In this document: positions 256-51,439 of the stretch, in pieces | Layout of the letters: each line of letters starts with the position of its first letter | How positions within the stretch are numbered: position 1 is the stretch's first letter | From: Octopus vulgaris | Lineage: Eukaryota | Direction of reading: 5' to 3' | Assembly: GCA_951406725.2 (NCBI GenBank) | Contig: OX597816.1 | Coordinates: 94,674,001-94,738,000 of the forward strand | DNA length: 64,000 bases | The notes under the pieces: generated by a model | Told to the model about the DNA's origin: nothing | The model's database searches: none | The model's input: only the letters and a program-made list of their open reading frames with translations | Translations under genes and position numbers: made by a program

Positions 256-3200
256 GTGAGTCATTTTCATAGATTTTAAAAAAATATTTGACCTGATTCA
301 GTCATTAGACTACAGCTTTATTGGGACACTACTCTGGAGAGTTTCATTGGTCAAATGGACTCCTGTACTTATTTTATTGGTCACTTTTTGCAAAACTACT
401 AAGTTATGGGAGACATAAGCAAACCAATGCAGGTTGTCAAGGGGTTAGTGATAAACACAAAGATGCATATATGAACACACACACACACACATATGCACAC
501 TAAAGCATACACTCACATGTGATAGGCTTCCACTCCTTTTCCATCTTCCAAATTTACTCACATGGCACTGGTCAGCCCAGGGCTATAGTAAAAGATAGTG
601 TGCAAGTTGCCATTCATTCATTGATCCCCACCTTACACGCCACTCTGTTGTTCACTCATTGACTCGCTACCACCACCACCACCACCTTACTCTTCACACT
701 GTTGTGTCATTCATTCATTGCCTTTCCTTAACTTTATACACCACTCTTGTATTATTCATTCTTACCCTGTCCACAGCCTTCCCAATTCTGATGTGTTTTT
801 CATTCTTTGTTTCCTCACATTACACATCTTTCTGTCATGTTGTCTATCCATTACCATATCTTATATTCTATGCCACCCTTTCTTGAATGTAGTCCTGTTG
901 TCCCACTTATATTTTTCATTTATGGTAGGTATATCATGCTATCTGGTTCAACCAGTAGCTGACCTATTAGTGTCTTTAGTTTTTTTAGTATTTGTTACTT
1001 GTATTCAGGCCAAGCATTACTTTGATCTGCTGGTGCATTAACATCCCATATACTTCCTTAGTTGTCAAAAATTAAACCCACTGACAATTCTGCCTTCATT
1101 TTTCTAACATTTAGAAGCCCCATTCCAACCTAGATGCCATACTTCAAATCTTTCATCTGAATTCTCTGCGAGACACAAATCTCAGAATCTCTCTCCACAA
1201 TTCATCTCTGCTATCCAGGCTACAATCTACAATTAAATTCCACTTTGAAGGTGGTATGTGCCTCTGTGTAGATTCCACCCTCATTGTAACTCATCTCTCT
1301 ACCTAGGTATCAATAACAAAGCCTTCTAGTTTTCTGGTTCAAAGTCTCCCTCATTCACTTCTCTCAATACATCTGCTTCCTTACCACTCTCTGAACTTTT
1401 CCAACTACCAACAATTTATCGATCATATTTCTTTCTGTATCAAACACATCTATCTCATTCAGTCTTCTCTAAAGTTATTGGTGTCTCTGACTTCAGATTC
1501 TCTTCTCAGCTTTCACACTTATACTACACTGATGCTGTTAATGTAGAAACCAAATCTTTTGCTGTCTTCTGCTCTCTACTTCATAGTCTGAAATACTTAG
1601 AGAAAATTATCCGCACCTGCAAACTAGACAGCTCTTATTCAGTATTGCAATTCCTGCAAAACCATCATCTAAACTATGACTCATGCCTCCATGCATTGCA
1701 CAGCTCTAAATCAACCTCCCAAATTGCAACCAATCCTTTTGCTCACTTCCTGTGATGATTCTGCAAACAACCCATCAAATAATGAATCAAAGTTGCTAAG
1801 ATTTTAATGAAAAATAATATAAGACAATACTAGACTACCCATGACTTGTTGGGTCACTGACGGTTCAGATTATAAAACATTGAAGCTGATTTCCACATTG
1901 ATTATTTTACAGCAGGGGTCACCAAACTTTTTTCATAGTGGGCCAGATATAGCTAAAAGAATACCAAGCGCGGGCCAGATAAATAGTTTGTTTAATTCAC
2001 TGCAATATAGAATACACTGAATGTACACAAAAAATGAAGACAGTCATCCTATTTATTTATCAATACATAAAATACACAAAATAATAAAAACAATAAACCT
2101 ATTTTACTTTGTTCGATGTATTGGCTTCACACACTTCATTTTTGAAAAAGTTTACTCACAAACATAAATTGTTTCAAAAACTGATGCCATACCTGAGGCA
2201 AACTTTTTCAATTTTGAAAACTCATCAGCTGGCAAGCAGTGAATAAAATTCAATGAGTTTTCCTTCTCTGTGCTTCTCTTTCAACAAGGTATTAGCTTGC
2301 AAGTCAATAAGTTCTAGTTGTAGTTCAGTTGGCATGTTATCAAGATAACAGCCAAAGGGATTCTCAAACAAAAGAATTTCATTCTCAATTCTGTCAAGAT
2401 CTGAAAATCTTTGAGAAAAATGCTTAAAGTCCTGAATAATTTTTTTCTGAAACTCAAGGTTAACATGTTCCACATTTTCTGTGCAAAACTCTTGAAAACA
2501 CTGAAAATGAGAGAAGTTTCCTCCTTCAAGTTGTGCTTCAAACAATGACAGCTTTCTCAAAAATGCTGTAATAATTCTGTAGAGATCACAGACAAGGTTA
2601 TTCTTTCCTTGCAGTTTTAAATTCAATTCATTCATATGAGAAGTGATGGCAACTAAAAATGACAACTTTGATAACCGAGAAGGATCTGACAACTGTGAAT
2701 CAGCTCTATTCTTTTCGGCGAGAAAAAAATCTATTTCTTTTTGGAGCTTATAAAAACGAAACAGGACTTTACTGCAACTGAGACATGTTACTTCTGTGTA
2801 GTCAGGCAAGTCACAGAAATTAGAATACATTTTTTCAAAGAAAGCCTGGGATTGTTGGTGATTAAACCAATGTTTTTCTGAATATAGTTCACCACACTTG
2901 TAACCGGTTTTAGTATTCAAGAAATATCTAAGTGTTTTCCACAGAGTGCTTGCTGATGTATAATGAAGTGTATAAACAGAGCTCTCAGAAGTTGAAGCTC
3001 CTCCAACTTGGTCTGAATCCACCCTACCAAACCCTTCCTCACTCCTGCCATGTTTTTTTCCTCCATCGACTGTAACACACTGAAGCTGATTCCACTGAAG
3101 GTTATAGTTTTGCAAAGTTTTCTGCACCTCTATGATAATATCTTCTCCAGTTGTTGTTCCATGTATATTGCAAACGGATGCCATTTCTTCTATAATCTCA

Positions 3201-5495
3201 AAGTTGCAATTAACACCACGAATGAACACAAGAGGTTGTGCCGTACTAGAGAGATCACTAGACTCATCCATTGCAAGAGAATACCACAAAAATTTCTTAA
3301 CTTTCTCATGTATCTGTAACTGTATATTCTCTGTATATTATGGCACATAAAATATATAGCGCATGATGAGACTGACTCAGTATACATATGACATGCGTAA
3401 TCTAAGAAGTGTAAGAAGCAGTATAAAAGCATGTTTATTTATTTCAGCATATGACGGCAGGCTGGACAAATTGACATCGCGGGCTGGATCCAGCCTGTGG
3501 GCTATTGTTTGGTGACCCATGATTTACAGCATCTAATAGAAATAGAACTTCTGGGATAAACTTGAACTCCAGTAACAACATTTATTTATGGCAAATGTGC
3601 ACACTTCTACAAAAATGCAAAAGGAATTGTTATATAATGTAAACATAAAATTAATAGAAGCAATTTTTCCATTTCAGGATTATGTTACTTTTGGAGTATT
3701 TTCTCATTATGCACTGTTTTGGCTATTTGGGAAGGTACTCCCCCCAAAAACCCTGCGTCTTGGGAATCTGTGGTCTGATTTACGTGAAACTTGTTTTATT
3801 CTGTTTGTATTAACATTTCAGGGGTACCTTACTTTCAGAGTATTTTCCTATCATGCACTAGTTTGGCTGTTTTCAATTCCAGACAAGCGCACAAACAAAA
3901 CTGGCATGACTACAGATGTGTACCCTCACTGACTTTGTTCCTCATAGCTTCCAGAAAAATGGATTCTTTTTAATAAAATTTTCAACAAATACCACTTAGG
4001 TACTGTGGATTTAGATTATTTAGGGATTTATGGGAAAGAATTTTTTGAAGGGGTAGGGAGAGGAGTTTCAGAAAATTCACATGGTCTGACTTTTTTCCCT
4101 CATAACTTTTAGGAAAATGGATATCTTTTAATGAGATTTTGTACAAATATCTTTCAAATGGCATTGGTTACAATTATAAAGAAATTTATGGGGAAAGTCT
4201 TATGGGAGAATCTTCCAAAAAATGGAGTTTGGGATCAGGACAACCAAATATATTGGAATTACTCTGTTTTGACAGGGATTTTCTCCATTTTTTTAAACCA
4301 CAGCCTTCGAAATGATGTGGGTGGGGAACATCTTTTTATGAAAAAATGGTTTTCAAAATTTTTTTTGTACAACTTATCATCCCACTCTTGACTGATTTTG
4401 GCCAATTTTTTGCACTTCAAAACCATGGAATGAGCCTTTTTGGTAAAAAAAAAAAATGTTAATATTTTCAGAGGAAAAAGTGAGTGGTTTGAGGGATTTC
4501 ATCACCTTGCTCTCCAGAATTCTTCATTGCCAGCATAAATCAGCTACTGATGAAATGGCAAAATCGTGTCGATAATTTAGGTGCATACTTTGATTAACTG
4601 CATTGCTTTTTGTTGAGATAAAGTAAAATAAACTTTCAGTTTAAAATCAGACATTTCATTCTTAATGACTTGATATGTAGAAGCTCCCTGCTGGCTTGTT
4701 GAGAGTTAAATGTGTACTGTCATCTTGATGGCTCTGCAAATCAGATGTATTATTTAAACTGTCAAAACTGCCATATTTACTGTTCAAGCTGTCAATTTGA
4801 TCAGATGTACTCTTTGAAAACTACTCTGTGTGTGGTTTAAATTACCAGCTGAGTCTGAAATTGAAAGGAATTTGGTTCACTATAATTTGGTGTGTTTCTT
4901 TTTAATTTGTAATTTACTCACTGTCATTTTTTTCTATACTTACTGACATATTTATATATACACAGATCCTATCCACATACACATTATTATAACCACACAA
5001 CTCATAACTGTAAATGTACATAAAACATGTCAATATGTATATGATATTAATTGGCCTATATTTATATATATATATAAATAAGATAGTGGTACGACATTGC
5101 ACCAATATTTACTTGAAATAGCAGTCGATAATATACAAGGCTATAGTAAAGCTTCACTATATATATATACTGGCAAACTTGTTAGTGAGTGGTGAACATA
5201 AAAAATTTCATCTTACCTGTAGGAAGAACATTAAATAAATGTACAATCCAGATGCAGATAATCTAGGTTTTGAAGTTTGCAAATTATGTTTAACATAAAT
5301 TTGATTAGTCCTCATTGGCTAGATTCACCTAGACAAAATCTCAAATGTCACTACATCAATACCAGTATATACTTGTCTGAGATGCCTAGCCGTTAACAGA
5401 CCGAAAACAGTGAAAAAGTTTTCAAAGAAAATATTATTAAATAGTGCAATACAGTAGTATTGCTTCCCAGTAAAACAAAGCACCATCAGGTTAAA

Positions 5496-6540: not shown

Positions 6541-9500
6541 GGTGGGGTTTGGTATGTATGTAGATACATACATACATAGACATTGTGTGTGCATGTATGT
6601 GTGTATGCATAAATGTTTTCGATTTGGCCTGTAATTACAGAAACAGAATGTATGTGTAACTGTGTGTGAAGGTTTTCAAATATCATCTGTTGTCATACAA
6701 TGATATCTTGACCTTTTCAAAGCCAATGTTGTGTTGTTAATGATAGTCCTCTACAAAGTAATGTGTGTCCACTGTAGACCAACAGGATAATGCTAACCTC
6801 CATTCTGTATTACTACAGTTAATGTCACGTTGCTGCACTTTTGTGAATGGCATTTGTATTTTGGTAGTTTAGTAGTATTTTATCATTCCTCATCACCACC
6901 ACCACCACCACCACATCTGCTGCTGGTGTCTCTATTATTGCTGAAGTAACACAGCCACTGCTGCCAACACCACCATGCTCCCTTCCTCCCCCTACTTTCC
7001 CTTCTCCTCCTCCACCACTCTTACCATTCCTACCAACCACTGACTCCAGTACCACTGCTGCCATGACCATTGCCATCACAGCTACCACCACCTTCACCAC
7101 TGCCTTTGGTGCTGTTGCACTACCACCACCTTAACATAACTAGAATTTTTGTTTTGTAGTTTTTCCTTTTAGTTTCTCTCCCAACACTTCCTTTCTCCTT
7201 CCTCCTCTCCCATCTCTTTCTTTCTTTTCTGTCTTCATTTCTTTTCAATTTATTCAGTTTCAGCCATAATTAGTTCTGCTGTCACAGCATTTTTTGCTAA
7301 AATGTCCTGGAGTGATTTTCCTCATAGACCTGTCTGCCACGTCAGAATTGATGATGGTGGTGGTGCCACATAAAAAGCACTGGTGTTGGTTCTACATAAA
7401 AAAATCACCTGTGCTGGTGCTATGTTAAAAGCACTGGTGCTGATGCCATGTAAAATGCACCCAGTATGCTCTGTGAAGTGGTTGGCATTAGGAAGGACAT
7501 CCCACTGTAAGAAGCCATGCTAAAACAGACAATGGAGCCTGGTGAAGCACATGGTTTCATCAGCTCTGTTCAAACTCATGCCAACATAGAAAACAGACAT
7601 TAAATGATTATGATGATGATGATGACATGGTGTGTATGGCACTCCTGCTTTTGATGGCTGCATTAGCAACATAAATAAAGTAGAATGTACACCACTTGAT
7701 CATGGTGTATATCTTGCACTCTATGGTGCTTGTATATCCCTCAGTACCTCTGCCAGTCACTGTACTGTATGTCATGGCCAGTTTTGAGAGTAGCACTGCT
7801 ACTCACATGGTTATTAGCAATTAGTCAGTAATGTAGTTTTCCCACCACTTTTAGTGATCAGTGAATGTTATAGCTTGTTGTTTAACCCCAAGTCATCCCT
7901 GTTTGCGCCGATCTATGAGCAGTGGGAATTCAACTGTTTCATCCTGTCTGTAATTTAAGGAATACATTATCTAAAATGAACTTTTTTTTAAAGGTAGTAT
8001 GGTTGATTTGATTGAGATTTGGCTACTACTGCTAGTTGTTCAAGAGATTGTATGGAAGCCTTTTAATTGACCATAAGGAAGCTCTCATACAAAGATGAAA
8101 TGTCATATGTACTTTATTCATTGAGTAATTATTACATGTATTACCACACACACATACCAATAATATTTATTAGGTTGTCAAGGAAGTTCTTGCGGTTTTT
8201 AACCTTTAAATTCAGATGCACATATCTTGGCTCAAACAAAACTTTATTAATCGAAATAAACACCATCAGAATCAACACACTTTTGCCAATGTGAAACAAG
8301 TTTATTTATGCCAGTAGCATAAAAATCCTGTGTTCTGGTGGTGATGAAGTCGTTGAAGGCATGTTTGGCATCATCTTGGTTTTTGAAGCATTTCTCACAC
8401 AGGAAGTTGTCAAGATGTTTGAAAAAGTGGTAGTCGGTAGGTGAGAGGTCTGGTGAGTATAGCAGATGAGGCAGAGTTTTGTAGCCCAATTTGTTCAACT
8501 TCTGCAGGCTCAGTTGTACAACGTGTGGCCGAGCGTTGTCATGGAGAAGAATTGGTCCTTTTCTATTGACCAATGCTGGCTGTTGTCAGAGTTTCTTATG
8601 CATTTCATCCATTTACTGACAGTACTTCTCTGCCATAATGGTTTTGCCTGGATCCAAAATACTGTGATAGATGAGACCGGCTGCAGACTACCAAACAGTT
8701 ACCATGACCTTCTTTTAGTGCAACTTTGGCTTTGGGAAGTGCCGTGGAGCTTTGTCGGCGTCCAACCACTGAGCTGAGCGTCGTCGGTTGTCATAATGAA
8801 TCCACAGGTCATTCTTGTTGCGTAAAAGAAGGGAAGACGACGCTTCAAAATGGCAATTTTTTTGGTTGTCGTTCAGTTTGTGCGGCACCCATTTCACAAA
8901 TATTTTTGTTTTTCCAATCTTTTTCAAGTGTTTGGAAATTGTCGTATGCATTACGTCTAATTCAGAAGCAAGCTCTCGAACAGTTGTGCGTGGATTGGCT
9001 TTGACTAAGGCTCTTAGTTGATCGTTGTCAACATCTGATGGCCGACCACTATGCTTATCAACTTCAAAACTCTCATCACTGCTATGAAATTTCTTGAACC
9101 ACCATTGTGCTGTACATTCATTAGTGGTTCCTGAGCCAAACGCATTGTTGATATCGCGAGCTGTTTTAGCAACTTTTCGACCTAGCTTGAACTGGAAAAA
9201 GAAAATTGTGTGAATTTGTTTTTTGTCCATGTTGTATTCAATGTTCTGGAAAAAATGGCCTAATTATTCAAAAAGAAAAAGAGTAAAACAATTAGATAGA
9301 GCAAAAAAAAATAAACGGGCTTTAAAATGATATATAAAGTCAAAGTAATTTAATGAAAATTAATTTGAATATACATCGTTTAAAACCAAAATTAAAAATT
9401 CTGCAAGAACTTTCTTGACAACCTAATAGTTTTTGGCTGAGTGTCAGATCACAGCACATTCTTTGTCTTTTCTAAGGTTTAACACTTTGATGTGTGATCC

Positions 9501-32500: not shown

Positions 32501-35500
32501 TCTGAGTAAGACACATCATTTCACATCGCTCAAAGCTACTCAGCTGAACATGAATACTAGTCGATTGCTGGTGCAGCCCTCTAGTTGCTCCAGCTATCAC
32601 ATCCTTGATATTTCACTGAGTCAAGTATGAGAGAATCAAATGGATGTTTATGTCTGCTTATACCAATAACATATTTGTGTCGCTTGGGCCCCTGAAACAT
32701 CTGTTTACCTTGCATATGTCAATGACATATAATTATCTGGACTACTTTGGTTCCCAAAACATATTTGGGTCTCTTTCGCTCCTGAAATTTATCAAAATCC
32801 ATCAAGATATTTACTTACCGGTGTTTGTTCTTTAGAATTCTGGTTGTCTTCTTGACTACTGAATCAACTATTGTAGATTGTTCAGTACCCACAAAAGTGA
32901 AATTTTTAGTTACATAATTAGATTCCTAAATTAATGAAGTACTTCTTTATTGTAGAAAATGTTTTTATTATTGTAATATTTGTAATGGTTAGAAAGAACA
33001 GCTAAATGCTGATAGTAAGAAATATTCAGTATCAGCATCCAGCTACTATTTCTAAAGACTAAATTTATAAAACCTTTTAATAGGCTTATGGCCTCTTGAT
33101 TCTCCATCTTTTCTCTTCTCACTGATGTATATTCATTGTTTTTTGCTTGATGAATCTTTGTTGGGAGTGGTTGACTATTAGGAACATTGCAGACAGGAAA
33201 TACCAACAAACGATTTTCTATCTAGATTCAAATATTAACTATTTAAAGCTGTGAGAGAACCGTTATATGATCATTCAGCCTGCAAATAATAGTTGCCAAA
33301 TTCTCCTCAAATCACACTCTACAATGTTAAAAGGACACATTGAAATATGTAGTCCTGAATACACTGCCCATAGCAAATAAGAGGGAGTGATCACAGCTAG
33401 ATTGTTTTTGACCATAGGTTTACATGATCAGGGCTAGCCTAGAGCTAAACAACAAAGGCTACTTAAATAACCTCCCACAATATCAACTATATAAATTATT
33501 ATTAGAGAAATAACACTGGATTAACATGATATGTGTGAAAGTAATGAATGTGTTAAGTGAAATACATTAGTAAAGAAGGGCTCTGGTTGGAGAGATCCTT
33601 CTCTTTACATGTTTTACTAACAACCAGTCTAACTCTTCATTTTTCTTTATCTCCAGCTATTAATCCCTGCTGAAAGTGGATCCTATCCACAAGTAGCTGA
33701 GCGACCAGATACTCTGTTAGTTCAAATCTCCAAAATGTCAGCAACCAATAAACAGAGTGAGGAAGAAACCAGTCATGAGAAACTATTACTGGCATTGGAA
33801 GAACAAAGCCAGTGCTGTCTACTTAAATCAACAGAATTCCCAATGGATCAGAACGAACTTTTGGTGTGTCCACAACATGTATGTAGTCATGTCTTAGAAA
33901 AGGACTGTCTTAATGCCTACATAGACTCATATGTGAAACAAGTGTTGACAAACTACAAGTTGTCATTGTCTGGCACGAACACAACTACAAATGCAGCTGA
34001 AATAGCTGACAGGAGAAGATTGAAAACCAACAGTCTCAAGCTGAATGCTGCATATGATATCTGGAATGTACATATTGATCAGATATGGATGGACTTCACC
34101 ACACGCAAGTCTCGCCCTGTTCCTTTTTTAGAGTCTTTCCCAGTGACATTTTGGTTTTGGCGAACTCAGCCCTGTAAAAGTAGGGAGAAGAAGGAAGGAG
34201 AGAGTAGATTTGGCCATAAAGACAGTTCTAAATTGAATGGGAGTCAGGATTATAGTGACACTTCTGAATCAGTTGATAGTGATAGTTCAACAACACTTTG
34301 TGATAATGATGGCCACACTGACATCTGTGCAATAGTATGTATCAAATCAAAAGTTCAAGTCCTACTCACACATTACCAGTATTTGTTCATGTTACGGCTT
34401 GCTGAGTCTTTAACAACCTTTCAAAAACAACTAGATGCTGACACTGAATATTTCTCCGGAACATTGGCATCTTCATCAATTTCTTTAACAACATTTGTGC
34501 AGGACATTGAAGTAGCGATGGTTTTCCGTAAACCATCTGAGAGTTCATTCCATAATGGAAACATGACTGAAGCTCATAGCAGTACCATAAAAGGAAGTAT
34601 ACCAGAACTGTCGCTTCCTGACCGGCAAGCAGAATTGGATGGTTGGCCAAACAGTAAGTTAATGTGCATGACTGTCATTTGTTTGATCTTGCTTCCCTCT
34701 AGAGGGTACAAATATATATAATACCCTCACCTTTCCATATATACATCATCATCATACCTACACACATCAAACATCCTCTCACCTTCCCAAACACTATCCT
34801 TCCTCCTATAAACACCACTAATATATAATGTGTTATTTCTGTTCTTTTGTTTTCACTCATCTGTCAAATTTCATAAATATTTTGTATTTGTTATCTATAA
34901 CCATTGTAAGTTTAATTATGATCATTATAGATTTTATTAATTCTTCCTAAGAACATGTAATAATTTCCTGCTGTGTTGTTTGTTGATCCATCAATGAATT
35001 TCTATGTTATTTGCAGATGACATGAACAACTATGATGGCAGCTTAAGTTACATCTCAAAATCTTACAGTGATTCTCGTTTAAATATCTCCAAGCATAGAA
35101 GTATGAATGGAGAGATGGTGGAGGGTTTGATCCATGAAGATAGCATGCAACCATTGAATACAGCATTAGAGAACAGTACTCCAAACATTAACCTCTGCAG
35201 TAGTGAAGGTGCATCAGAATGTGCAATGCCTATGTCACTGGTAACATATAGTGCAGCTTCAGACACTGTTTATTCAACAATAAGTTCAGATGCTAAAAGT
35301 GCTGGGCCAGCAGTTACAGCACGCAAATCCAGTTTTAAAAGTGAAAAGAAAAAAGTTCTGTCAACAGCTTGGTCAAATTTTACTGACAAGTTGAGGTCCA
35401 TGAGTGATTTAAATGACGATTCTTTGCTTGGTAGTGAAGACCTGGAACCAGGTCAGACTGATTATTCTTCAGATGATGAGTCATTTGAACATCTGTCATT

Positions 35501-38500
35501 AGAAGACGCTGAAGAACTTCCTGCATTTGAAAAGAAACAAACTCTTGATGCTCAGGGCTCTTTTGAAACTACAAGCCAAGACAGCAGTTTAGAAACTACA
35601 TCAACAGCTCGGGAAAAGCAACTAGTATGTGTTATTTATATTTTCTCCTTTTATGTGGTTAGCTTTGCAATGACTTCATATGAAAGTTTCCTTTTACTTA
35701 TTTTTCCAATATGATGTGGGACAGTGTGTTTAACCCTTTCGTTACTATATTTCTGACCAAAATACACCCCTTATGTGTTTCAATTAATTTCTAACATAAT
35801 CATAAATTTAGTCTGGTTTCATTAAACAACTATAACTTTTTTATTTATCAATATATTAACGTGAATTTTGGAAGATAATTTAATGAAATGTTCTCAACCA
35901 ATTCTATACTATAATTTTTGTCACAAAGTGACTCTAATTGCAGGTAGATACAGGTAAATTCAACAAAATATAAAATTATTAAAATTTTGTTCAAACATCA
36001 CTATAGAAAATGGGTTATTAGCTAATATTCAATTGGGTATACAACAAAATTTTACGATAGAATTTGTTATTCTGGGTAACTTTCTGATACCCATAATAAC
36101 ATTTATGGCAAAATAGTCTTAATTTCATTTAAGGTTATGGGAAACCACTTTCTTTCGTTTTGTTTACATTTAGCGTAACGGTTCGTTTCTGCCGTAATGA
36201 TTTCAAATAGGCTCATTCGAAAAAGTAAAAAGAAATAGTCTAAGGCTTTACTCTTCTGGGAAAGTCTGTGGCTTGGTCCAGTTTCTTCAGAAAAATCACC
36301 GAAAGAAACAGTTTTTAAATTTTCACTCCATTCAGGTGCCAATTCATTTTCTTTATCGCTGTCGGAGCTCTCGGATTCACTGTTTTCACTTTGGAAAATG
36401 AAACATCAGATTCATTATCAAATACCACATGCTTTTTTTTTTTCAGTCATAGAGTTAGATTTATGAAGGTCTTCAGTAGAAAATCCTTCGAATTCTGACT
36501 TTCTGCTTGATATAATGAAATTCGTATCCATTTTTTGTCAGAATTACAAATTTTGAAAACAATAGGAACAAATTTCGGAAAAAAATCTCCCAAAATTCAC
36601 GGAATTAAAATTACACTTCGATTTTTGTACAAAACTGTAGTTGAACTCTTTACGAAGTATAATACGTGTTTTCACGAATGTACTAAAGAGATTTGCTCTG
36701 ATATTCTCATTTAAATATGAATAGGTAAATTCGGGCGGTTTTGGGCGGCTTGGTCACATTAACCAAAATTTTTTTCGGGCGGTTTGGTAACGAAAGGGTT
36801 AAAGTGAAGATGTAAGACTATTGGACATACATCTATGCACTTACTACAGTTAATCATTTGTGTTTGTGACAAAGGCACATAACTTTGCTTGCCTTAGTCT
36901 GCCTTGCTGTAACAAGTTCTACTTTTGTTTCATAGTTGTTAGAATTAAAAAAGACATGCAGCTGTAAAAACAATTAGACCAACAGTATACAGATGTTCAA
37001 ATTAAATAAAATAATCATTCTTTAAAAATCTGTTTAAAAGCTAGAGCGCAAAACTAGTGATGCTGATGAAGTTAATGTTCTTTATGAGATTCATTAACTT
37101 GGCAACTAGTTCAGAGAAACAGATGTTATTGCAGTTGTTATAGAAGAAGCTGGGAGAAAAATACAAACATTTGTGAGTCTACAGCAGTAGTGTGTTGGTG
37201 AGTGTTTGTGTGTCAGTCTTCTCTTGAATGTGCTCTGTTCCAGATATATGAGCAGTTGTTACAATATGAGTTTTAGTAGAGTTTTGTAGATGGTCAGCAA
37301 ATGATCAGAGGTTGAGGTATTTCAAGCCCTAAAAAAGAAACCTAGAGTTTGTGATGTTTTTCTACAGATACCTAGCATGAGCATGTCAAAATAGATGTAA
37401 AACAGTGAAGATAAGTCATAATGTGTGAAGATATACTGGAAGGAGATAGTTCTGCCTGACTAACTATCAACACATCAGTTTAAAAAATGGTAGATTTTGC
37501 TATAGAGAAGAAGTTTCATGTATTAGTGGATGCCTGTTATAAAACCAGTTATAAATTACACATCTGGAAATAGTTTATATTTTCTATCACTCTCCTAAAG
37601 TATGCTAAATATTTATGTTGCATATTGTTTCTTCAAATGCTTACTTATTAATTACAAATTTGTCTTTTTTTAATCCATAATTGGCCTACCACTAACATGA
37701 TGTTTTGTGTATATTACGTTTCTGAATGACTTTGTATGTTTCATTTTTAGTTTCAGATTTAGACCCCATAGGTTACATCCATTGATCCACTGCTATCCCT
37801 ATCACCAACTTGCTATTCATCTTTATCTCCAGCCAATGAAGGAACCTTTATTTAGTCAGTTGACCTGCTAGAAATAGCAGTCAAATCTCTTACATTAGTA
37901 TCATAAAAAAGAAAGGATACATTAGGTAATGTAGTTTGAGGTACACTATTCCTGAAAAAAAAAAAACCTAAAAAAAAACGGGATAGTCATGGCTTGACTG
38001 CCTTTGATTGTACATCTATTTGATGGCAGTTGAATACATCTCTACCAAATCAATATTATTCACTATTATTACATGTCCTCACATTTGCAGCTATTTCAAT
38101 AGCATATAATTTCAAGTCAATTCACAATGCAGGCTCATATTGTGTAAAGCAAAGATAAAGCTACATAGTGAAGCAATAAGTTAATTTTAAACAAGTCATC
38201 TTCTGCTTTTTTTCAGATCAATGTTTCAATCTTCCATTTGAGCCGAACTGAAGCATTTGTCCAGAACTTGAGAAGTGGTACTGTATTACGTTGTCAATTA
38301 GAAAATATTGATGTTGCTGAATCAAGAGGTTTCAGCTGGGAAGGATTCCACCGCAAGTTTACCTCATCAAAAGGTATTTTTCATATATTCTTGTAGTAAA
38401 ATTAGCATTGTTTCCTAAGTGTCCCTATTGTTCTATTCCATTAATGAAGTCAACAGTTTAAATGTATATCACAGTAACCATGTAGTTTCTGGTTCAGTCC

Positions 38501-41500: not shown

Positions 41501-42888
41501 AGAAAACCAGTTTTTTTTAACCCATAAAAATTTAAGGTTTAATGTTTATAAATCTATTATACTGAAATGATTTCACATTAGTTATCACTGTTACTATTTC
41601 ACAGGAAGACCGTCCATCCAGCTGTGGCAACTCTAGTCAACCACCAACTGTAATTTCATTGCATCGTTCAATAATTGATCGTGGAGGGGATGGAGTCTTT
41701 CATATCAGAGGTAAACATGTTTGTATTTCTGAATAATTTGGAAGAAGAAGCATATATGTAGTTTTAATTTATTATTTAATGTTGATATAACATGAAGAAA
41801 GGTTCAGAAATGTGTTAACACATTAAGAAAGTAAATAATCAAAGGGAGAAAATGTATTAAAAAAAAAGAGTTGAAAGGCACATTTTAAGTGATATATAAC
41901 TTCTATTTAAATGAATGGGTTTTCAACTAAACAGTGCTTGATATAAATAAAAAGATGAGTTCTCATACTCAAATGATCTGTCTTTGCACATGTACTTGGA
42001 TAATTTCTTGTGTAGTTTTGATTACTGATTATAGGATGTAATACTAAGCTACTTAACACCTAAGTTTTTAGAGATAGCAAATAACTAGGAGGAAGCTCCT
42101 ATATCCATTTTCCGTCATTGTAATATAAATAACCTTACTGCTGTACATTACAAGGAAATTCTCTACTGGTGCTCAGTAATACTCTGTAGCAATTACTGTG
42201 TCCAGAGAAAATTTTTTGAATGATTTTAACTGAGGTGTCCAGTATTGAATCAAACTGACACTTACAGAATGTATGAAAGTAAATTCTGAACTAGATTTGA
42301 ACTTCCTTCAATTATTTTTTTTTAATATTATTTAAAAATGTTAACTCTCATACAATGTGATATTTCTTTTGACCAACAGGTGCTAAAGAGAGTGAATATT
42401 ACAAAAGGATCTCAAAATCATCCTCGATTACCAAAAATTCATCAGGTGAAAATCAAAACACCTTAGAAGCTGCTTTATATGGTTCTGTTAGTACTTCTAG
42501 TCGAATAATTGAACAGTTACATAATGAGAATGAAGAACTGGTATCTGTTAATAGAAAGCAAGCTGAAACTTTAGAGAATTATACAAAGCTTATGGCAGAA
42601 GTTGCCAGTTTGAAGGATGAAAACCAAAAACTTAAGGAATCTTTAGATGAAACAGTCTCTCAGATACAAGATTCTAATCAGAATTTCTCCTCAGAACATA
42701 TAACATCATTAGAAACTGAAAATCTGAAACTATTACAAAAGATTACTTACTTAGAAGAAGAAATACAAACATCTGTTAAAGAAAAGGACTCATTACTAGC
42801 AACAATGCACCTGCTTCAAGAAGAGTTGCTTTCATCAGAGCAACAACGCACCGGTTTCCAGCATCTACAAAGTCCTAATCAAGCATAA
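93..42888 (+). CDS. BLTP3: Bridge-like lipid transfer protein family member 3 (UHRF1BP1/UHRF1BP1L/SHIP164 homologue); 18 coding exons in window, first coding exon upstream
   Basis: Spliced translation follows the BLTP3 N-terminal chorein region (RFTKNLSPDKI..EGEL.NLELDE..LPTWL; WTKLKT.PICL; TCEEPRSPN; YGF.E; FKE.DWQ.TRIEA; LDDLLWVLT.TQLKA). All introns GT-AG with matching phases; exon total 4423 nt; ends in a coiled-coil exon and TAA at 42886-42888. Confidence 0.93.
1913..3521 (-). mobile_element. hAT (Buster/SPIN/GTF2IRD2-like) DNA transposon, internally deleted
   Basis: 15-bp TIRs caggggtcaccaaac / gtttggtgacccatg (1 mismatch); 8-bp TSD ttttacag / atttacag; ORF 2225-3289 has SLA.DES.D...AQL.VF.RG, TTTGEDI and LNLKLQG motifs. 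Confidence 0.9.
5545..6293 (+). mobile_element. Possible non-autonomous Helitron/Helentron-like element
   Basis: Follows a (TA)n/(TG)n tract; carries aactcctcccacacc..ctgattttaatgatttttggcaca (partly repeated near 5775); ends in a decayed hairpin plus CTAG at 6290-6293. Confidence 0.35.
6291..6443. repeat. Fold-back of (CA)n-(CAT)n plus retroposon tail
   Basis: taggata(ca)n..(cat)n gtcgtttaa / 13-nt loop / ttaaatgac(gat)n..(tg)n tatccta. Confidence 0.85.
8170..9426 (-). mobile_element. Mariner transposon, cecropia/Hsmar1-like, with both TIRs; transposase is a pseudogene
   Basis: TIRs ttaggttgtcaaggaagttcttgc / gcaagaactttcttgacaacctaa flanked by TA; WVPHKL, HDNARPH and YSPDLSPTDYHFF motifs; several in-frame stops between 8573 and 8717. 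Confidence 0.95.
9785..10867 (+). mobile_element. Tx1/L1-clade LINE 3' fragment (zf-RVT) with A-rich tail, interrupted by a SINE
   Basis: Translates to WQCYRGALPVRDKL..CPRCEQDRETVLHAIIQC..VW and AIAKEVIWKLR; caataaaaaaa near 10856-10866. Confidence 0.75.
10343..10646 (+). mobile_element. tRNA-derived SINE with (AAT)n tract and degenerate hammerhead core
   Basis: A-box-like tggcatagtga and B-box-like gagttcgattt (10382-10436); CTGATGA...GAAACGTT at 10557-10592; flanked by ttaccaacaggt / ttaccaaaaggt direct repeats. Confidence 0.7.
10920..10958 (+). CDS. BLTP3: BLTP3 39-nt exon IQWTKLKTQPICL
   Basis: ttttatAG acceptor, GTAAGT donor; matches the conserved WTKLKT.PICL motif. Confidence 0.9.
11796..11881 (+). 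CDS. BLTP3: BLTP3 exon YLDEVVLEVETCEEPRSPNNPQMPTSNV
   Basis: ctAG / GTGAGT; TCEEPRSPN motif; phase 0 to 2. Confidence 0.9.
11925..12235 (-). mobile_element. CR1/L2-type LINE 3' end
   Basis: RKHFFTLRVAEVWNNLPASVV....SFK C-terminal motif, 3' UTR and ATT-rich tail; related copies at 26461-26722 and 56400-56965. Confidence 0.8.
14506..14611 (+). CDS. BLTP3: BLTP3 exon PGKYGFVERAIDGIYVHINSVQVNFRSKTFQASLQ
   Basis: AG at 14504-14505, GTGAGT at 14612; phase 2 to 0. Confidence 0.88.
14899..14972. repeat. (TA)n microsatellite, representative of many (TA)n, (CA)n, (AAT)n and (GAT)n tracts
   Basis: Direct reading; others near 5497, 6501, 10450, 11339, 20022, 29550, 43540-43800 and 62405. Confidence 0.95.
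15546..15789 (+). CDS. BLTP3: BLTP3 exon MSRVKVHSV...IAVKKNMN
   Basis: tAG / GTAAGA; DLR.TR.KD..RGEV..FKE.DWQ.TRIEA motif. Confidence 0.92.
17300..17463 (+). CDS. BLTP3: BLTP3 exon CSIVSSRVILLLDDLLWVLTETQLKA...EKLK
   Basis: tttcAG / GTATGT; LDDLLWVLT motif. Confidence 0.92.
17521..17732. mobile_element. piggyBac-type MITE (about 212 bp)
   Basis: TTAA|ccctttagcatt ... aatgctaaagag|TTAA: 12-bp TIR with 1 mismatch and TTAA TSD. Confidence 0.75.
17905..18222 (-). mobile_element. tRNA-derived SINE, family A (other copies about 340-620 -, 20370-20745 +, 27672-27812 -, 29440-29665 +, 38470-38843 +, 55757-55880 +)
   Basis: Minus strand begins tggctgtgtggtaag...gttcagtcccactg (A/B boxes), then ggcaccttgggcaagtgtcttctactatag and a (TG)n body repeated across the window. 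Confidence 0.8.
18908..19088 (+). CDS. BLTP3: BLTP3 exon KQGHIASDQ...FDVLSTSYHLITSRIDLHLCDDMQPRK
   Basis: ttttcAG / GTAATT; FDV..TSYHL....DLH.CDD motif; open frame not listed in the ORF track. Confidence 0.9.
19320..19520 (-). repeat. Interspersed repeat, family D (copies about 7875-8060, 21555-21735, 31940-32040, 33265-33460, 37850-38030, 46235-46380)
   Basis: Recurrent motifs gac(c/t)tgctagaaatagcagccaaatctccctcaaatcacacc and ctttgatcatagg..tgcttgatcagggct; class not assignable; orientation arbitrary. Confidence 0.6.
20075..20293 (-). mobile_element. tRNA-derived SINE, family C (copies about 12660-12820 +, 14140-14230 -, 26315-26743 -, 28835-29025 -, 45120-45290 +)
   Basis: Shared core gaccctgaaaggatgaaaggc.aagttgacctt.gc.gaatttgaactca; B-box gagttcaaatt on the minus strand; (AAT)n tail. 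Confidence 0.75.
20899..20994 (+). CDS. BLTP3: BLTP3 exon SATTFCSKIEGGAMQVTLNKLSIDYYPFNPA
   Basis: ttccAG / GTAATT; GGAMQ and DYYPF motifs. Confidence 0.9.
21624..21829. repeat. Perfect 53-bp inverted repeat (fold-back)
   Basis: 21624-21676 is the exact reverse complement of 21777-21829. Confidence 0.95.
22899..23110. mobile_element. Tc1/mariner-type MITE (about 212 bp)
   Basis: 31-bp imperfect TIRs tagggtagcccaaaattaggtttacagttat / ataactgtaaacctacttttgggtcaccctg, flanked by TA. Confidence 0.8.
24207..24324. repeat. 118-nt near-perfect hairpin
   Basis: 24207-24248 pairs exactly with 24283-24324; inner agagtttcat/atgaaactct stem with an 8-nt loop. Confidence 0.95.
25331..25486 (+). CDS. 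BLTP3: BLTP3 exon GERKQWYRYSDQVGSRNHWV...SPSHST
   Basis: ttgtAG / GTAATT; phase 1 to 1. Confidence 0.87.
26461..26722 (-). mobile_element. CR1/L2 3' fragment nested in a family-C SINE
   Basis: Close match to 11925-12185; the SINE sequence stops at 26460 and resumes (gattctgccagctc) at 26723. Confidence 0.8.
26979..27359 (+). CDS. BLTP3: BLTP3 exon: Ser-rich linker then LLESCFVL...STAD...HMEFTEYYYPEGVNLP
   Basis: ttacAG / GTAAGT; conserved STAD and EFTEYY.P motifs. Confidence 0.92.
28000..28246 (+). mobile_element. RTE-tailed retroposon/SINE, family B (copies about 7365-7625 +, 15942-16170 +, 16215-16400 -, 30168-30695 -, 31050-31230 +, 40335-40602 +, 47235-47390 +, 48520-48945 -)
   Basis: ggttggcgttaggaagggcatccagc..aacccatgctagcatggagaacggacgttaaacgatgatgat tail; the same 3' sequence is joined to RTE coding sequence at 53337-54145. 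Confidence 0.8.
28622..28728 (+). CDS. BLTP3: BLTP3 exon PHANLYVLLNPVQLRVDYLTLLWLNYFVLQLSKNL
   Basis: tttttcAG / GTTAGT; P.NLY..LN and LWLN.F motifs. Confidence 0.9.
31818..31880 (+). CDS. BLTP3: BLTP3 63-nt exon KENTDGPREHIDIKFEALMPK
   Basis: ttttcAG / GTAAGT; EH.D....LM.K motif. Confidence 0.85.
33657..34653 (+). CDS. BLTP3: BLTP3 997-nt exon (LLIPAE...HYQYLFMLRL...GWPN)
   Basis: ctccAG at 33655-33656, GTAAGT at 34654; contains ORF 33735-34721 with PF.ESFP and HYQYLF.LRL motifs. Confidence 0.92.
35017..35624 (+). CDS. BLTP3: BLTP3 608-nt Ser/acid-rich, probably disordered exon
   Basis: ttgcAG / GTATGT; phase 1 to 0; lies inside ORF 35004-35714. Confidence 0.85.
35734..36798 (-). mobile_element. 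piggyBac deletion derivative (1.07 kb)
   Basis: TTAA|CCCTTTCGTTAC ... GTAACGAAAGGG|TTAA perfect 12-bp TIRs; subterminal ttcgggcggttt repeats; ORF 36103-36342 has piggyBac N-terminal motifs (DYFFLLF..ETNRYA..W.PIT..EIK). Confidence 0.88.
38217..38373 (+). CDS. BLTP3: BLTP3 exon INVSIFHLSRTEAFVQ...RKFTSSK
   Basis: tttttttcAG / GTATTT; open frame; phase 0 to 1. Confidence 0.82.
39546..39805 (+). CDS. BLTP3: BLTP3 exon LQYETKSMSTAQFPVRLKYMIGPG...LIEDE...LTLQ
   Basis: ttAG / GTAAGG; GPG, GFL and IEDE motifs of the C-terminal region. Confidence 0.87.
40920..41470 (-). mobile_element. Mariner remnant (second subfamily): 5' TIR plus HTH region
   Basis: TA|ctgggttagcaagaatgtaatttcgttttt TIR; degraded translation EICEVYG..KFRSGDFSLKDD..TEVDDDQIKAI..EIAERLNVSHTTI..KKLDIW. 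Confidence 0.75.
41605..41710 (+). CDS. BLTP3: BLTP3 exon EDRPSSCGNSSQPPTVISLHRSIIDRGGDGVFHIR
   Basis: cacAG / GTAAAC; R..DG.FHIR motif. Confidence 0.87.
42380..42888 (+). CDS. BLTP3: BLTP3 terminal exon, C-terminal coiled coil
   Basis: aacAG at 42378-42379; frame continuous into ORF 42592-42888 (heptad-like E/K/L/Q); stop TAA. Confidence 0.88.
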
Positions 42889-49214: not shown

Positions 49215-49910
49215 GATATTTTGTTTGAGTCAGCATCTTGCAACTTAGAGTTTCACTTTCTTCAGGCAAATTGTGAGTGGAAAATCAATGGGATTATCAC
49301 ATTTATAGTTTTCTAGTCATAGGGTGTGAATGTGGGGAGAAAGAATGATAAAAGAAGGGAGAAAGGAAGAGAAAACAGGGAAAAGTAACAGACAGAAAAT
49401 GAGAGTAAAAAGACTGAGAAAGTAGAGTGAAAGGAAGACAAGAGGCAAAAAAATGGAGAAAAATAGAAAAAAGAGAGAGATTTTTTTTCTTTTTAATTTA
49501 TTTTACTTTATTCCTTCTGAACTATTGACCATTTCTCCAGAACAGTACACTCCTAAAATTCTTTGTATCTATTCTACATTTTGTTTACTCTTTTGCCACC
49601 TTACTCATTCTTAATTTAGCATCTCTGCTATTTCAACTGTTATATTTTTCATTCATTACTTCTTGTAGTTCATGTGCTATCCCATCCTGTATGCATCTTA
49701 CACCTGTTTTCTCTTTTCCTTTCCTTTTCTCCTTATCTTCCTTTCATTTCATTTTTTTTTCTATTAGTCTCTTCCCTTTTCCCCTCCTTTATACTTCTTA
49801 CCATTGAAAAGTACAAAGCCCATCTCTTTTCCAGTTACAACATGCCTGAAGATCTTGTGAACCTACAGGTAAAACTCAGAGTAGCAAGAGACTGATTCAA
49901 CCAAAATAAC
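49215..49910. mobile_element. Old inverted pair of Penelope pLTR/retrozyme-like units with degenerate hammerheads
   Basis: Minus 49269-49238: ttgc CTGAAGA aagt GAAA ctctaag TT gcaa. Plus 49843-49886: tgc CTGAAGA tcttgtgaacctacaggt AAAA ctcagag TA gca. Downstream flanks are homologous; purine and pyrimidine tracts mirror each other between them. Confidence 0.55.
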
Positions 49911-49999
49911 ATAACATTAACCTCTATCATGATTTTGACTACTCTTTTTTGACAGTTAATACTAAACGAATATATATATCATCATAAGAATATATATAT

Positions 50000-50404
50000 A
50001 GCAATAATAATTCTCTAAACGAGATATAGACAGTAACTGCTCCATAACAAAAGGGACATTAGCCATTTGAATGTGGCTTAGAGAATTATTATTGCTGTCG
50101 AATAGATTTTCGAAATCAGTAAATGTATTTACGTGAAAATCTATATATAAATATCCTGCACAGAGAGTCGTTCGTTGAGGGGCGGTGCCTACCATACGTT
50201 GACGAGAGGCAAACACCTCGAAACCTGGGTCCGTATGTGGCATCCACTTCTTCGGGGAATGATCTCCCTTTGCAGGATAGAGGACACCGTGAAGGTGTCA
50301 GCCTATCTGGTGACGTTGATGATCGCCTGGGGCTAAATGCATCAGTAACACCCCCACCGCCCTGCCCTGTCCCTAGCCACATTCAAATGGCTAATGTCCC
50401 TTTT
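50000..50404 (+). mobile_element. Retrozyme/Penelope-pLTR-like element (about 357-nt unit with an inverted 5' segment)
   Basis: Perfect interlocked inverted repeats 50000-50018/50078-50096 and 50049-50078/50375-50404; GC/CpG-rich body; hammerhead inside; flanked by (TA)n. Confidence 0.75.
50193..50237 (+). ncRNA. Type I hammerhead ribozyme motif (C3U variant)
   Basis: catacg TTGACGA gagg-caaaca-cctc GAAA cctggg TC cgtatg: 6-bp stem I, 4-bp stem II, near-palindromic stem III, GUC cleavage triplet. Confidence 0.8.
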
Positions 50405-51439
50405 AATATATATATATTCATATATATATTCCATGCTGACATGAGCTGAACAGTTTGACAGGATCCAACACATCAGAGGACTACATCAAGCTCAAAATAA
50501 CAAACACTTTACAAAGTGTGCTGGGTGCTTTATTTTATGGCCCTGGCTCTACTGAGGTCACCCACTTAATTGCAAGACAAAGAAAAAAGTTTCTTGACTT
50601 AGTGGAAGTAGAGGGAGGTGGCTTTATGCCAAGTGTTGAGAAGCTAATGTATGATAATGTGACAAGAATGTGTCTGGCTGTAGAAGAGTTACATGTTTAC
50701 TCTATATAACTGTGGGTGGGAGTAACTGGAGAGATAAAGATGGTGGTGACTAGGTATTGGAGCTTATCCAGGCAGTACTAGAAGGTTGGTATAAGAGAGA
50801 ATATGACAAGAGGATTGGGAAGCATGGGTAGATAGTGCATAAGAATATGGGGAAAAGGTGATATGAAGGTAGAGGTGTATGTAGTGAAAATGTGATTGAT
50901 GGTAAATAGCCATTTGAGAGAGAAGCTGCAAGAAGTAAGAGTGGCTCAGGGAGGAGGAAATGGTGACAATACAGAAAGTGTGGAGAGTAGCAGTATAAAA
51001 CTGCAGATGGATGAGAAATAGGGTGGGGTGGGGATAAGAAAGACATAGTGAAGAGATGAGATCAGAAATATGTAGGGGTAGATATAGTGAGTGGAGAACG
51101 AAGGTGGAGGGAGCATCTATGGCAGATTTGAGTGGGTGATAAGGATGAGGTACAAAAGTCATAAAATGTAATTCAGGAGAAAGGGAGATATGATACTGAG
51201 AATAACGAATCAATGCCAAAAGGAAGTGGTTCCAAGGATAGGGATAACTGGTAGCACAAAAGGGGGTGAATTATGTGCAGTTCTGCTTTCTTTTGAGTAA
51301 AGCAGCAAAATAGTGCCATAGAAGAATGATAGGGTTAGGAAGATGAGAAGTAGGTGGCCAAGAAGTCTTGACAGGGACAGTGTGTATGGACATGAACATA
51401 ATGCTTGTAGAATCTTATTTTCACTATGATGGATAAGTC

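Follow-up and report, generated by a model that had tools for sequence, protein, structure and literature searches.

The locus and its insertion

The window, a stretch of 64,000 nt of Octopus vulgaris DNA (contig OX597816.1), carries two exon-sized open frames on the forward strand (33633-35714 and 42373-42888), the first of which matches BLTP3A/B (Pfam PF24917, E = 1.6e-21). The reverse strand holds a decayed mariner-type transposase with a Mos1 HTH (8715-9263) and a 370-aa frame (2225-3337) which we take to be the remnant of a hAT-type transposase and for which Pfam gave no match. About 7 kb beyond the last exon-sized frame lies a 405-bp insertion (Table 1), whose flanks are themselves repeated sequence, as judged from summed contig depth (49836-49903 and 50414-50549). 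An empty allele was sought in four runs mapped to 49700-50700, none of which gave a contig joining both flanks.

Table 1. Features of the insertion, in window positions.
Feature	Position	Strand	Remark
Left copy of the target-site duplication, 11 bp, (TA)-rich DNA	49989-49999	+	identical to 50405-50415; partly ambiguous within TA runs
Right copy of the target-site duplication, 11 bp	50405-50415	+	identical to 49989-49999
Left arm, 79 nt, B-C-A'	50000-50078	-	3' end = site 2
44-nt "tail" between priming sites 1 and 2	50000-50043	-	spacing measured in natural tandem copies
Right arm, 327 nt, A'-D-B	50078-50404	+	3' end falls 5 nt before site 1
Inverted pair A/A', 19 bp	50000-50018 / 50078-50096		perfect
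Inverted pair B'/B, 30 bp	50049-50078 / 50375-50404		perfect; blastn within the window, E = 5.6e-10
Long interrupted stem extending hammerhead stem I	50152-50279	+	fold z -4.4; covariation across subfamilies
Type I hammerhead motif, predicted cut after 50231	50193-50237	+	motif, fold, covariation
Hammerhead core U3-U4-G5-A6-C7-G8-A9 (TTGACGA)	50199-50205	+
Hammerhead stem I	50193-50198 with 50232-50237	+
Hammerhead stem II	50206-50219	+
C17	50231	+
Stem III palindrome, two G.U pairs, for a double hammerhead	50223-50230	+	self-duplex; five palindromes across subfamilies
Short hairpin downstream of the long stem	50283-50299	+

The first-pass annotation had described a circularly permuted unit with a hammerhead and interlocked inverted repeats, and most of that description was borne out. 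Both inverted pairs are perfect and have base 50078 in common, the hammerhead string reads exactly as annotated with C17 at the expected base, and the further hairpin (gacacc/ggtgtc) was located. The proposed extension of stem I is supported by folding, as 50150-50310 reaches -67.5 kcal/mol (z = -4.4), a value attained by none of 200 shuffles. CpG dinucleotides are indeed retained, with an observed/expected ratio of 0.78 in the element against 0.25 across the window, and the 11-bp duplication in (TA)-rich flanks agrees with a (TA)n target. The unit length of about 357 nt corresponds to the spacing of tandem hammerheads at other loci (357-362 nt). The derivation of both arms from a single tandem or circular unit had been staked on the B-C-A' junction occurring in direct orientation elsewhere. 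When looked for, this junction was seen at many other loci, with B joined directly to C and A', and the derivation therefore survives. The supposed youth of the insertion holds in part: it is fairly young, with 323 of 327 bases the same as at two other loci (L002 and L003), but it falls outside the youngest subfamily.

No open reading frame of at least 150 aa overlaps the 405-bp element, and the reverse transcriptase (RT) and GIY-YIG domains of an autonomous Penelope-like element (PLE) are absent from it. This short product (79 + 327 nt) carries one hammerhead and is likely an inert dead end, probably unable to release a new monomer because its hammerhead is single.

A dispersed family of non-coding units

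A search of the genome (2.8 Gb, 227 contigs) with the element gave at least 229 family matches, from 40 scored candidates out of 1,869, and an internal 18-mer had 3,805 exact matches, a lower bound on the number of unit segments. The family is dispersed and made of non-coding tandem units of 355-362 nt, whose repeats adjoin other units and not ORFs. No LTR, PBS or PPT was found and the target duplications exceed 4 bp; the element is of the non-LTR retrozyme type, with a type I hammerhead.

The window copy belongs to subfamily Y, which has a U3.G8 core (153 exact core matches). Subfamily Z has 271 exact matches and includes tandem loci with a U3-A8 core, such as L211 and L212; W is a further subfamily. 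The youngest and largest subfamily is V, with a C3-C4-G8 core and 1,222 exact matches; divergence within loci is 0.39% in the C3-C4-G8 subfamily versus 1.19% in U3.G8. An older sister family, S (3,012 candidates, copies 88-92% alike), came up beside a PLE; it conserves the 44-nt tail at 70-85%, and 25 of its 27 cores read CTGATGA (C3-G8). Two loci, L187 and L276, contain units of two subfamilies in one insertion (23 differences in 208 nt between the two at L187), through either nested insertions or two templates. Four near-identical W copies with the same flanks (L223-L226, contig C29) lie on a larger segmental repeat beside a minisatellite.

A covarying hammerhead with a wobble core

The first-pass annotation had left open whether U3 was a mutation of this copy or a natural variant. 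It is not copy-specific but family-wide: U3 occurs in 35 of 35 cores of the first 25 loci, and across the genome the base that follows exact matches to the window's stem I is U3 in 153 cases and C3 in one. The canonical C3-G8 core is thus not that of the window's subfamily; it occurs in S and, with C4, in V. We take the departure as a variant that does not bar the element from the non-LTR retrozymes. Rfam gave no hammerhead match in the window copy or in four relatives. Both strands were scanned with patterns built from the sense motif, and hammerheads were found on the sense strand of the unit only.

The segment ccuggg is not a hairpin of the monomer but forms part of an 8-nt palindrome suited to a double hammerhead. 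Stem III is palindromic in every subfamily, in five different sequences that pair as 8-bp self-duplexes at -7.2 to -11.4 kcal/mol (-9.8 kcal/mol for the window copy), and none of them forms a hairpin. The minimum-energy fold of a natural dimer (L002) is a double hammerhead. PLE hammerheads reportedly cleave as dimers. Folded in circular form, natural monomers reach z values of -2.6 to -5.8, and the unit folds are branched, with 59-67% of bases paired. A viroid-like replicating RNA would be expected to have ribozymes in both polarities and a rod-like fold.

Twelve chosen, related rows were aligned on the structure drawn from the window copy: 95.2% of the cells are paired and 27 changed on both sides, a result as high being reached by none of 500 shuffles. 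In stem III all cells of these rows are paired and two of the four pairs changed on both sides, as did three of the four pairs in the first helix of the stem I extension across subfamilies. Position 3-8 is always U.G (7 rows), C-G (4) or U-A (1). We built a tree from 89 unique natural fragments, leaving out those without the span from core to B, masking the seven core columns and rooting on S (C3-G8). The 13 C3-C4-G8 copies form one clade (support 95) nested in U3 lineages (nodes 100, 97, 99 and 99; some nodes of the tree reach only 65-85). This nesting implies that C3 was regained, together with U4C. As read from these sequences, the U3.G8 core appears to have given rise both to U3-A8 and to C3-C4-G8. 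Substitutions of the A>G and T>C types make up 25 of 67 on inner branches versus 16 of 84 on tips (p = 0.016); because they show no strand bias, editing is not separable from selection on structure.

The window's U3.G8 core is probably slow yet tolerated. In a deep scan of another hammerhead, every single change in the CUGA turn gave low activity (PMC9901934), and U3.G8 may accordingly fail to cut. Perreault et al. (2011, PMC3088659) list U3-A8 among the active pairs and describe U10.1.U11.1 as tolerated. A CCGA core (a PLMVd variant) was reported to retain activity in the viroid, as cited in PMC9608096. For one haloviral hammerhead variant the published core shows U3...G8 together with 2 inserted nt (PMC7151607). 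A literature search, with key older papers lying outside its reach, turned up neither activity data for a fixed U3.G8 core nor a multicopy animal element described as having one.

Two head-to-head arms and two fixed ends

The copies consist of two arms placed head to head, whose 5' ends meet inside and whose 3' ends point outward into (TA)n. Variable permutation points had been expected across copies. This was not the case: 195 of 210 arm 3' ends cluster tightly at one or the other of two sites, which are separated by 44 nt, and variation is confined to the inner junction. The site-1 end followed by TA repeats has 667 exact matches genome-wide, and the site-2 end 258. Sampling was kept neutral as to shape by taking the first 30 places for each end pattern and reading the opposite free end. 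A second arm was resolved in 22 of 30 and 23 of 30 places, always at the other site; the remaining places were single-armed, or had a second arm too short for BLAST or beyond the edge of the locus. Altogether 122 distinct places comprised 34 single-armed ones or ones without a resolved arm and 88 two-armed ones, of which 82 were site1/site2, none site1/site1, none site2/site2 and 6 had an off-site end. One arm per site was thus found in 82 of 82 scorable young loci. An apparent site2/site2 insertion at L152 proved to be a false pattern match.

In family S, 18 of 57 places were two-armed: eight site1/site2, one more that reaches site 2 after an internal deletion (L330), one with both arms at site 1 (L333), one doubtful that may have them there too (L349) and seven with decayed ends. 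Because of these exceptions the rule of one arm per site is strong but not absolute. Target-site duplications were mostly 8-11 bp in non-alternating flanks, which made 10 of 80 loci informative. The copies thus carry the insertion signature of PLEs, namely two RT start sites delimiting a tail, an inverted truncated arm and an AT-rich target. The annotation had ascribed the arrangement to a 5' inversion of Penelope type. The shared end signature upholds the connection with Penelope but not a fold-back, the arms appearing to have been primed separately.

Penelope-like elements in the same genome

Coding PLEs with RT and GIY-YIG domains are present in the same genome. PLE-A (L061-L070) has many intact 781-aa frames and a minimal hammerhead with a U3-A8 core and a 4-nt palindrome. 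PLE-B (L081-L114; L111 = contig C3:5853000-5862900) is very young, with 76 of 76 scored copies 100% identical in protein, a tandem period of about 4.27 kb and a CCGA-type hammerhead core like that of subfamily V. PLE-E (L387-L416), whose tail measures about 35-44 nt, is young as well (copies 99% alike), and a scan with core patterns found no hammerhead in it. All three lie in (TA)n, each with a tail and a pair of ends peculiar to it, and one arm per site was observed in 13 of 13 two-armed PLE loci (PLE-B 4/4, PLE-A 3/3, PLE-E 6/6).

These architectures agree with published work. At AT-rich targets in vitro, the PLE protein studied by Frangieh et al. (2024, PMC11167929) cleaves both DNA strands and extends them; it is a predicted dimer, and its RT starts at two internal positions, which mark off the tail. 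An inverted arm and a tail at one end were described by Craig et al. (2021, PMC8557442) and Arkhipova et al. (2013, PMC3846280).

Comparison of the unit with PLE-A, -B, -C, -D and -E and scattered GIY-YIG loci (among the best 148 of 6,136 candidates) gave no DNA match; it covered few of the PLE-D 3' ends. An apparent match at L072 was traced to an independent copy belonging to sister family S, and an 11-mer common to the unit and PLE-B, like a 12-mer common with PLE-E, was judged due to chance. At L153:888-1737 an RT fragment of an old PLE-D is fused, in the same orientation, to an S arm between (TA)n flanks and does not continue on the far side; this single hint possibly reflects a template switch onto the partner's own mRNA. 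Retrozyme copies also lie in (TA)n runs adjoining PLE-B or PLE-E ends (L258:625-1490, L286, L268), through either a common target preference or insertion into a run left by the PLE.

The RNA template

Arms cross the predicted cut site in 68 of 82 cases in U3.G8 and 41 of 45 in C3-C4, and arm 5' ends show no excess at this position (6 of 195), as run-off would give. The template was therefore not a cut linear monomer. We compared 67 whole units from 20 V loci, chosen for carrying several hammerheads: the difference is 0.23 substitutions between units of one locus versus 7.1 between loci. Both arms have the same haplotype, and in three V loci a private change is fixed in all units. L313 carries 15 + 8 hammerheads between a site-2 end and a site-1 end, L309 shows an ABAB alternation at one site, as expected from a dimeric circle, and L308 and L313 have one haplotype in common. 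Arm length has a median of 662 nt and a maximum of 5,304 in C3-C4-G8, and of 390 and 1,262 in U3.G8.

Two studies propose rolling-circle reverse transcription for retrozymes (PMC7229834; PMC4209133), and homogeneous V arrays are the pattern that such a process would predict. Linear transcripts of homogeneous donors, or gene conversion, can also yield homogeneous arrays. In the older subfamilies, units diverge by 1.4% within a locus and by 1.4% from the nearest other locus. Among 197 pairs, 62 are closer, 63 equal and 72 farther within the locus, and unshared private changes outnumber shared ones.

Contigs bridging the end of the unit to its start were found in three of four runs guessed as RNA, none of the runs being recorded as such, and one 359-nt contig has letters seen in subfamily V. 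Tandem DNA gives the same joint and assembled contigs cannot reveal circles, so these contigs do not count as evidence of expression. A contig in X12 (depth 4.7) carries nine A>G changes, at most a hint of editing.

A model of two-ended insertion and its alternatives

We propose, with a probability of roughly 0.7, that this non-coding 357-nt hammerhead family forms two-armed insertions through a PLE RT-endonuclease acting in trans, which would prime at two nicks on a circular or uncut multimeric template. The observations behind it are the family itself, its fixed ends, the pairing rule of the arms, the target duplication, the read-through of the cut site, the architecture common to coding PLEs and the covariation. 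For the remaining steps we infer dimer cleavage, circle ligation, recognition by the PLE in trans, coupled priming by two subunits and joining of the cDNA ends. Transcripts of tandem loci would fold as double hammerheads, be cut to monomers and be ligated to circles. A PLE-like RT-endonuclease would then nick both (TA)-rich strands about 11 bp apart, and one cDNA would be primed per nick, one at site 1 and the other at site 2 of the RNA, which may be the predicted circle or an uncut multimer. Two RT subunits, each starting from one site, would travel backwards along the circle over distances between 30 and more than 5,000 nt, after which the 3' ends of the two cDNAs would be joined, with little or no microhomology, into the head-to-head junction. 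At the window copy, reverse transcription would have stopped early, after 79 + 327 nt. More tentatively, a dimeric RT of Penelope type may grip the circular retrozyme RNA at its two sites 44 nt apart and roll from both strands, in which case each insertion would document coupled priming at two ends. On this reading the family would amount to a natural experiment in ribozyme evolution: the wobble U3.G8 core would have borne several subfamilies and have undergone two repairs, one to U3-A8 and a later one to C3-G8 with U4C, which would have triggered the current burst of long arrays.

The same two-ended priming could act on an uncut linear multimer, without any circle and with a largely vestigial hammerhead. 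We consider this unlikely, although several observations favour it. The U3.G8 lineages continued to amplify (153 and 271 exact matches) and the older subfamilies have no excess of similarity within loci. Ribozyme cleavage was unnecessary for PLE insertion in vitro (PMC11167929), and 8 of 9 Xenopus retrozyme dimers stayed uncut in vitro (bioRxiv 10.64898/2026.07.22.740005). However, the stems, the stem III palindrome and the 3-8 pair were kept paired through many changes, a sign that the ribozyme is under selection. Ever-longer templates would be required for 15-unit arms to arise at dispersed loci, and the longest arms belong to the subfamily that regained C3-G8.

Alternatively, the inverted arm could result from a single priming event and subsequent self-priming, either on an antisense template or on the first cDNA, a route put forward in PMC3846280 to account for rotifer PLEs with head-to-head copies. 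One arm could be contained in the other in 47 of 80 simple two-armed loci, and 11 of 80 junctions lie within 10 nt of a palindrome centre, 4 of them exactly at it. In the other 33 loci, including the window copy by its arm lengths, neither arm contains the other and each has sequence that the other lacks, so a fold-back cannot produce those copies and is refuted as a general route. Moreover, in 82 of 82 loci the second arm ends at the fixed site that the first does not use, a rule that a two-subunit model predicts and a fold-back does not. We therefore hold this route to be very improbable. It is hardly credible that the family is a satellite or a unit mobile at the DNA level (MITE- or Helitron-like), with terminal inverted repeats, an incidental hammerhead and no RNA step. 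Such a unit would fit the long arrays and the finding of no coding partner with shared sequence among the PLE families sampled, but the two termini differ in sequence, the inner junction varies as expected from 5' truncation, the copies lie scattered over (TA)n tracts and are flanked by 8-11-bp duplications, and the RNA structure covaries.

The family thus bears the end signature of PLEs in thousands of copies, although the repeat is non-coding and carries a hammerhead. A 357-nt template, two mapped start sites and several young, intact PLE ORFs make the proposed mechanism directly testable in vitro, and the natural series of cores in one scaffold (C3-G8, U3.G8, U3-A8, C3-C4-G8) offers a test of how much cleavage a retrozyme needs.

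Relation to known retrozymes and PLEs

Non-LTR retrozymes and their PLE origin have already been published (PMC7229834 and bioRxiv 10.64898/2026.07.22.740005). As in the animal retrozymes described by Cervera and de la Pena (2020, PMC7229834) and in the preprint of Li, Clavereau and Pollet (2026), which are non-coding tandem units of 150-450 bp (350-390 bp in mussels), the octopus family has one type I hammerhead per unit with a short palindromic stem III, GC below 50%, no LTR, larger duplications and co-occurrence with PLEs. The main text of these two studies describes tandem repeats and monomers, not head-to-head two-ended arms, and the word "inverted" does not occur in that of PMC7229834. 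Xenopus retrozymes share sequence with a PLE (bioRxiv 10.64898/2026.07.22.740005), whereas the octopus unit has no pLTR link among the families sampled. The circular RNA of the octopus family is predicted from folds and arm structure. Unlike EN+ PLEs, the family has no ORF, its tail is 44-46 nt and its arms reach 15 whole units; the PLE tail is given as optional in descriptions of these elements (PMC8557442, PMC3846280 and PMC11167929), whereas the pairing of octopus arms was counted and is nearly strict.

The open literature on octopus and other cephalopod retrozymes, hammerheads and Penelope elements contained no description of this family, and preprint supplements, subscription journals and repeat libraries may hold more; nor did it contain a report of bidirectional priming on non-autonomous circles. 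Within these bounds, the novelty lies in a non-coding retrozyme that has the PLE tail and follows the two-site rule almost strictly, and in a wobble core that extends through the family and was repaired in two ways. The enzyme that moves animal retrozymes and the origin of tandem and inverted copies of tailed PLEs are called open in PMC7229834, PMC8557442 and the 2026 preprint.

The ribozyme itself resembles the double hammerheads of the newt and axolotl satellites and of cave-cricket pDo500 in its weak palindromic stem III, those being active as dimers (PMC7229834 and PMC2837043), and it shares with axolotl HHR_Amex2 a U.U mismatch at the stem II base. The core is U3.G8, U3-A8 or C3-C4-G8 where the described animal retrozymes have CUGA. 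In cricket pDo500, C3 and G8 are changed in only 4 and 2 of 198 sequences, whereas octopus subfamilies are fixed for other 3-8 pairs.
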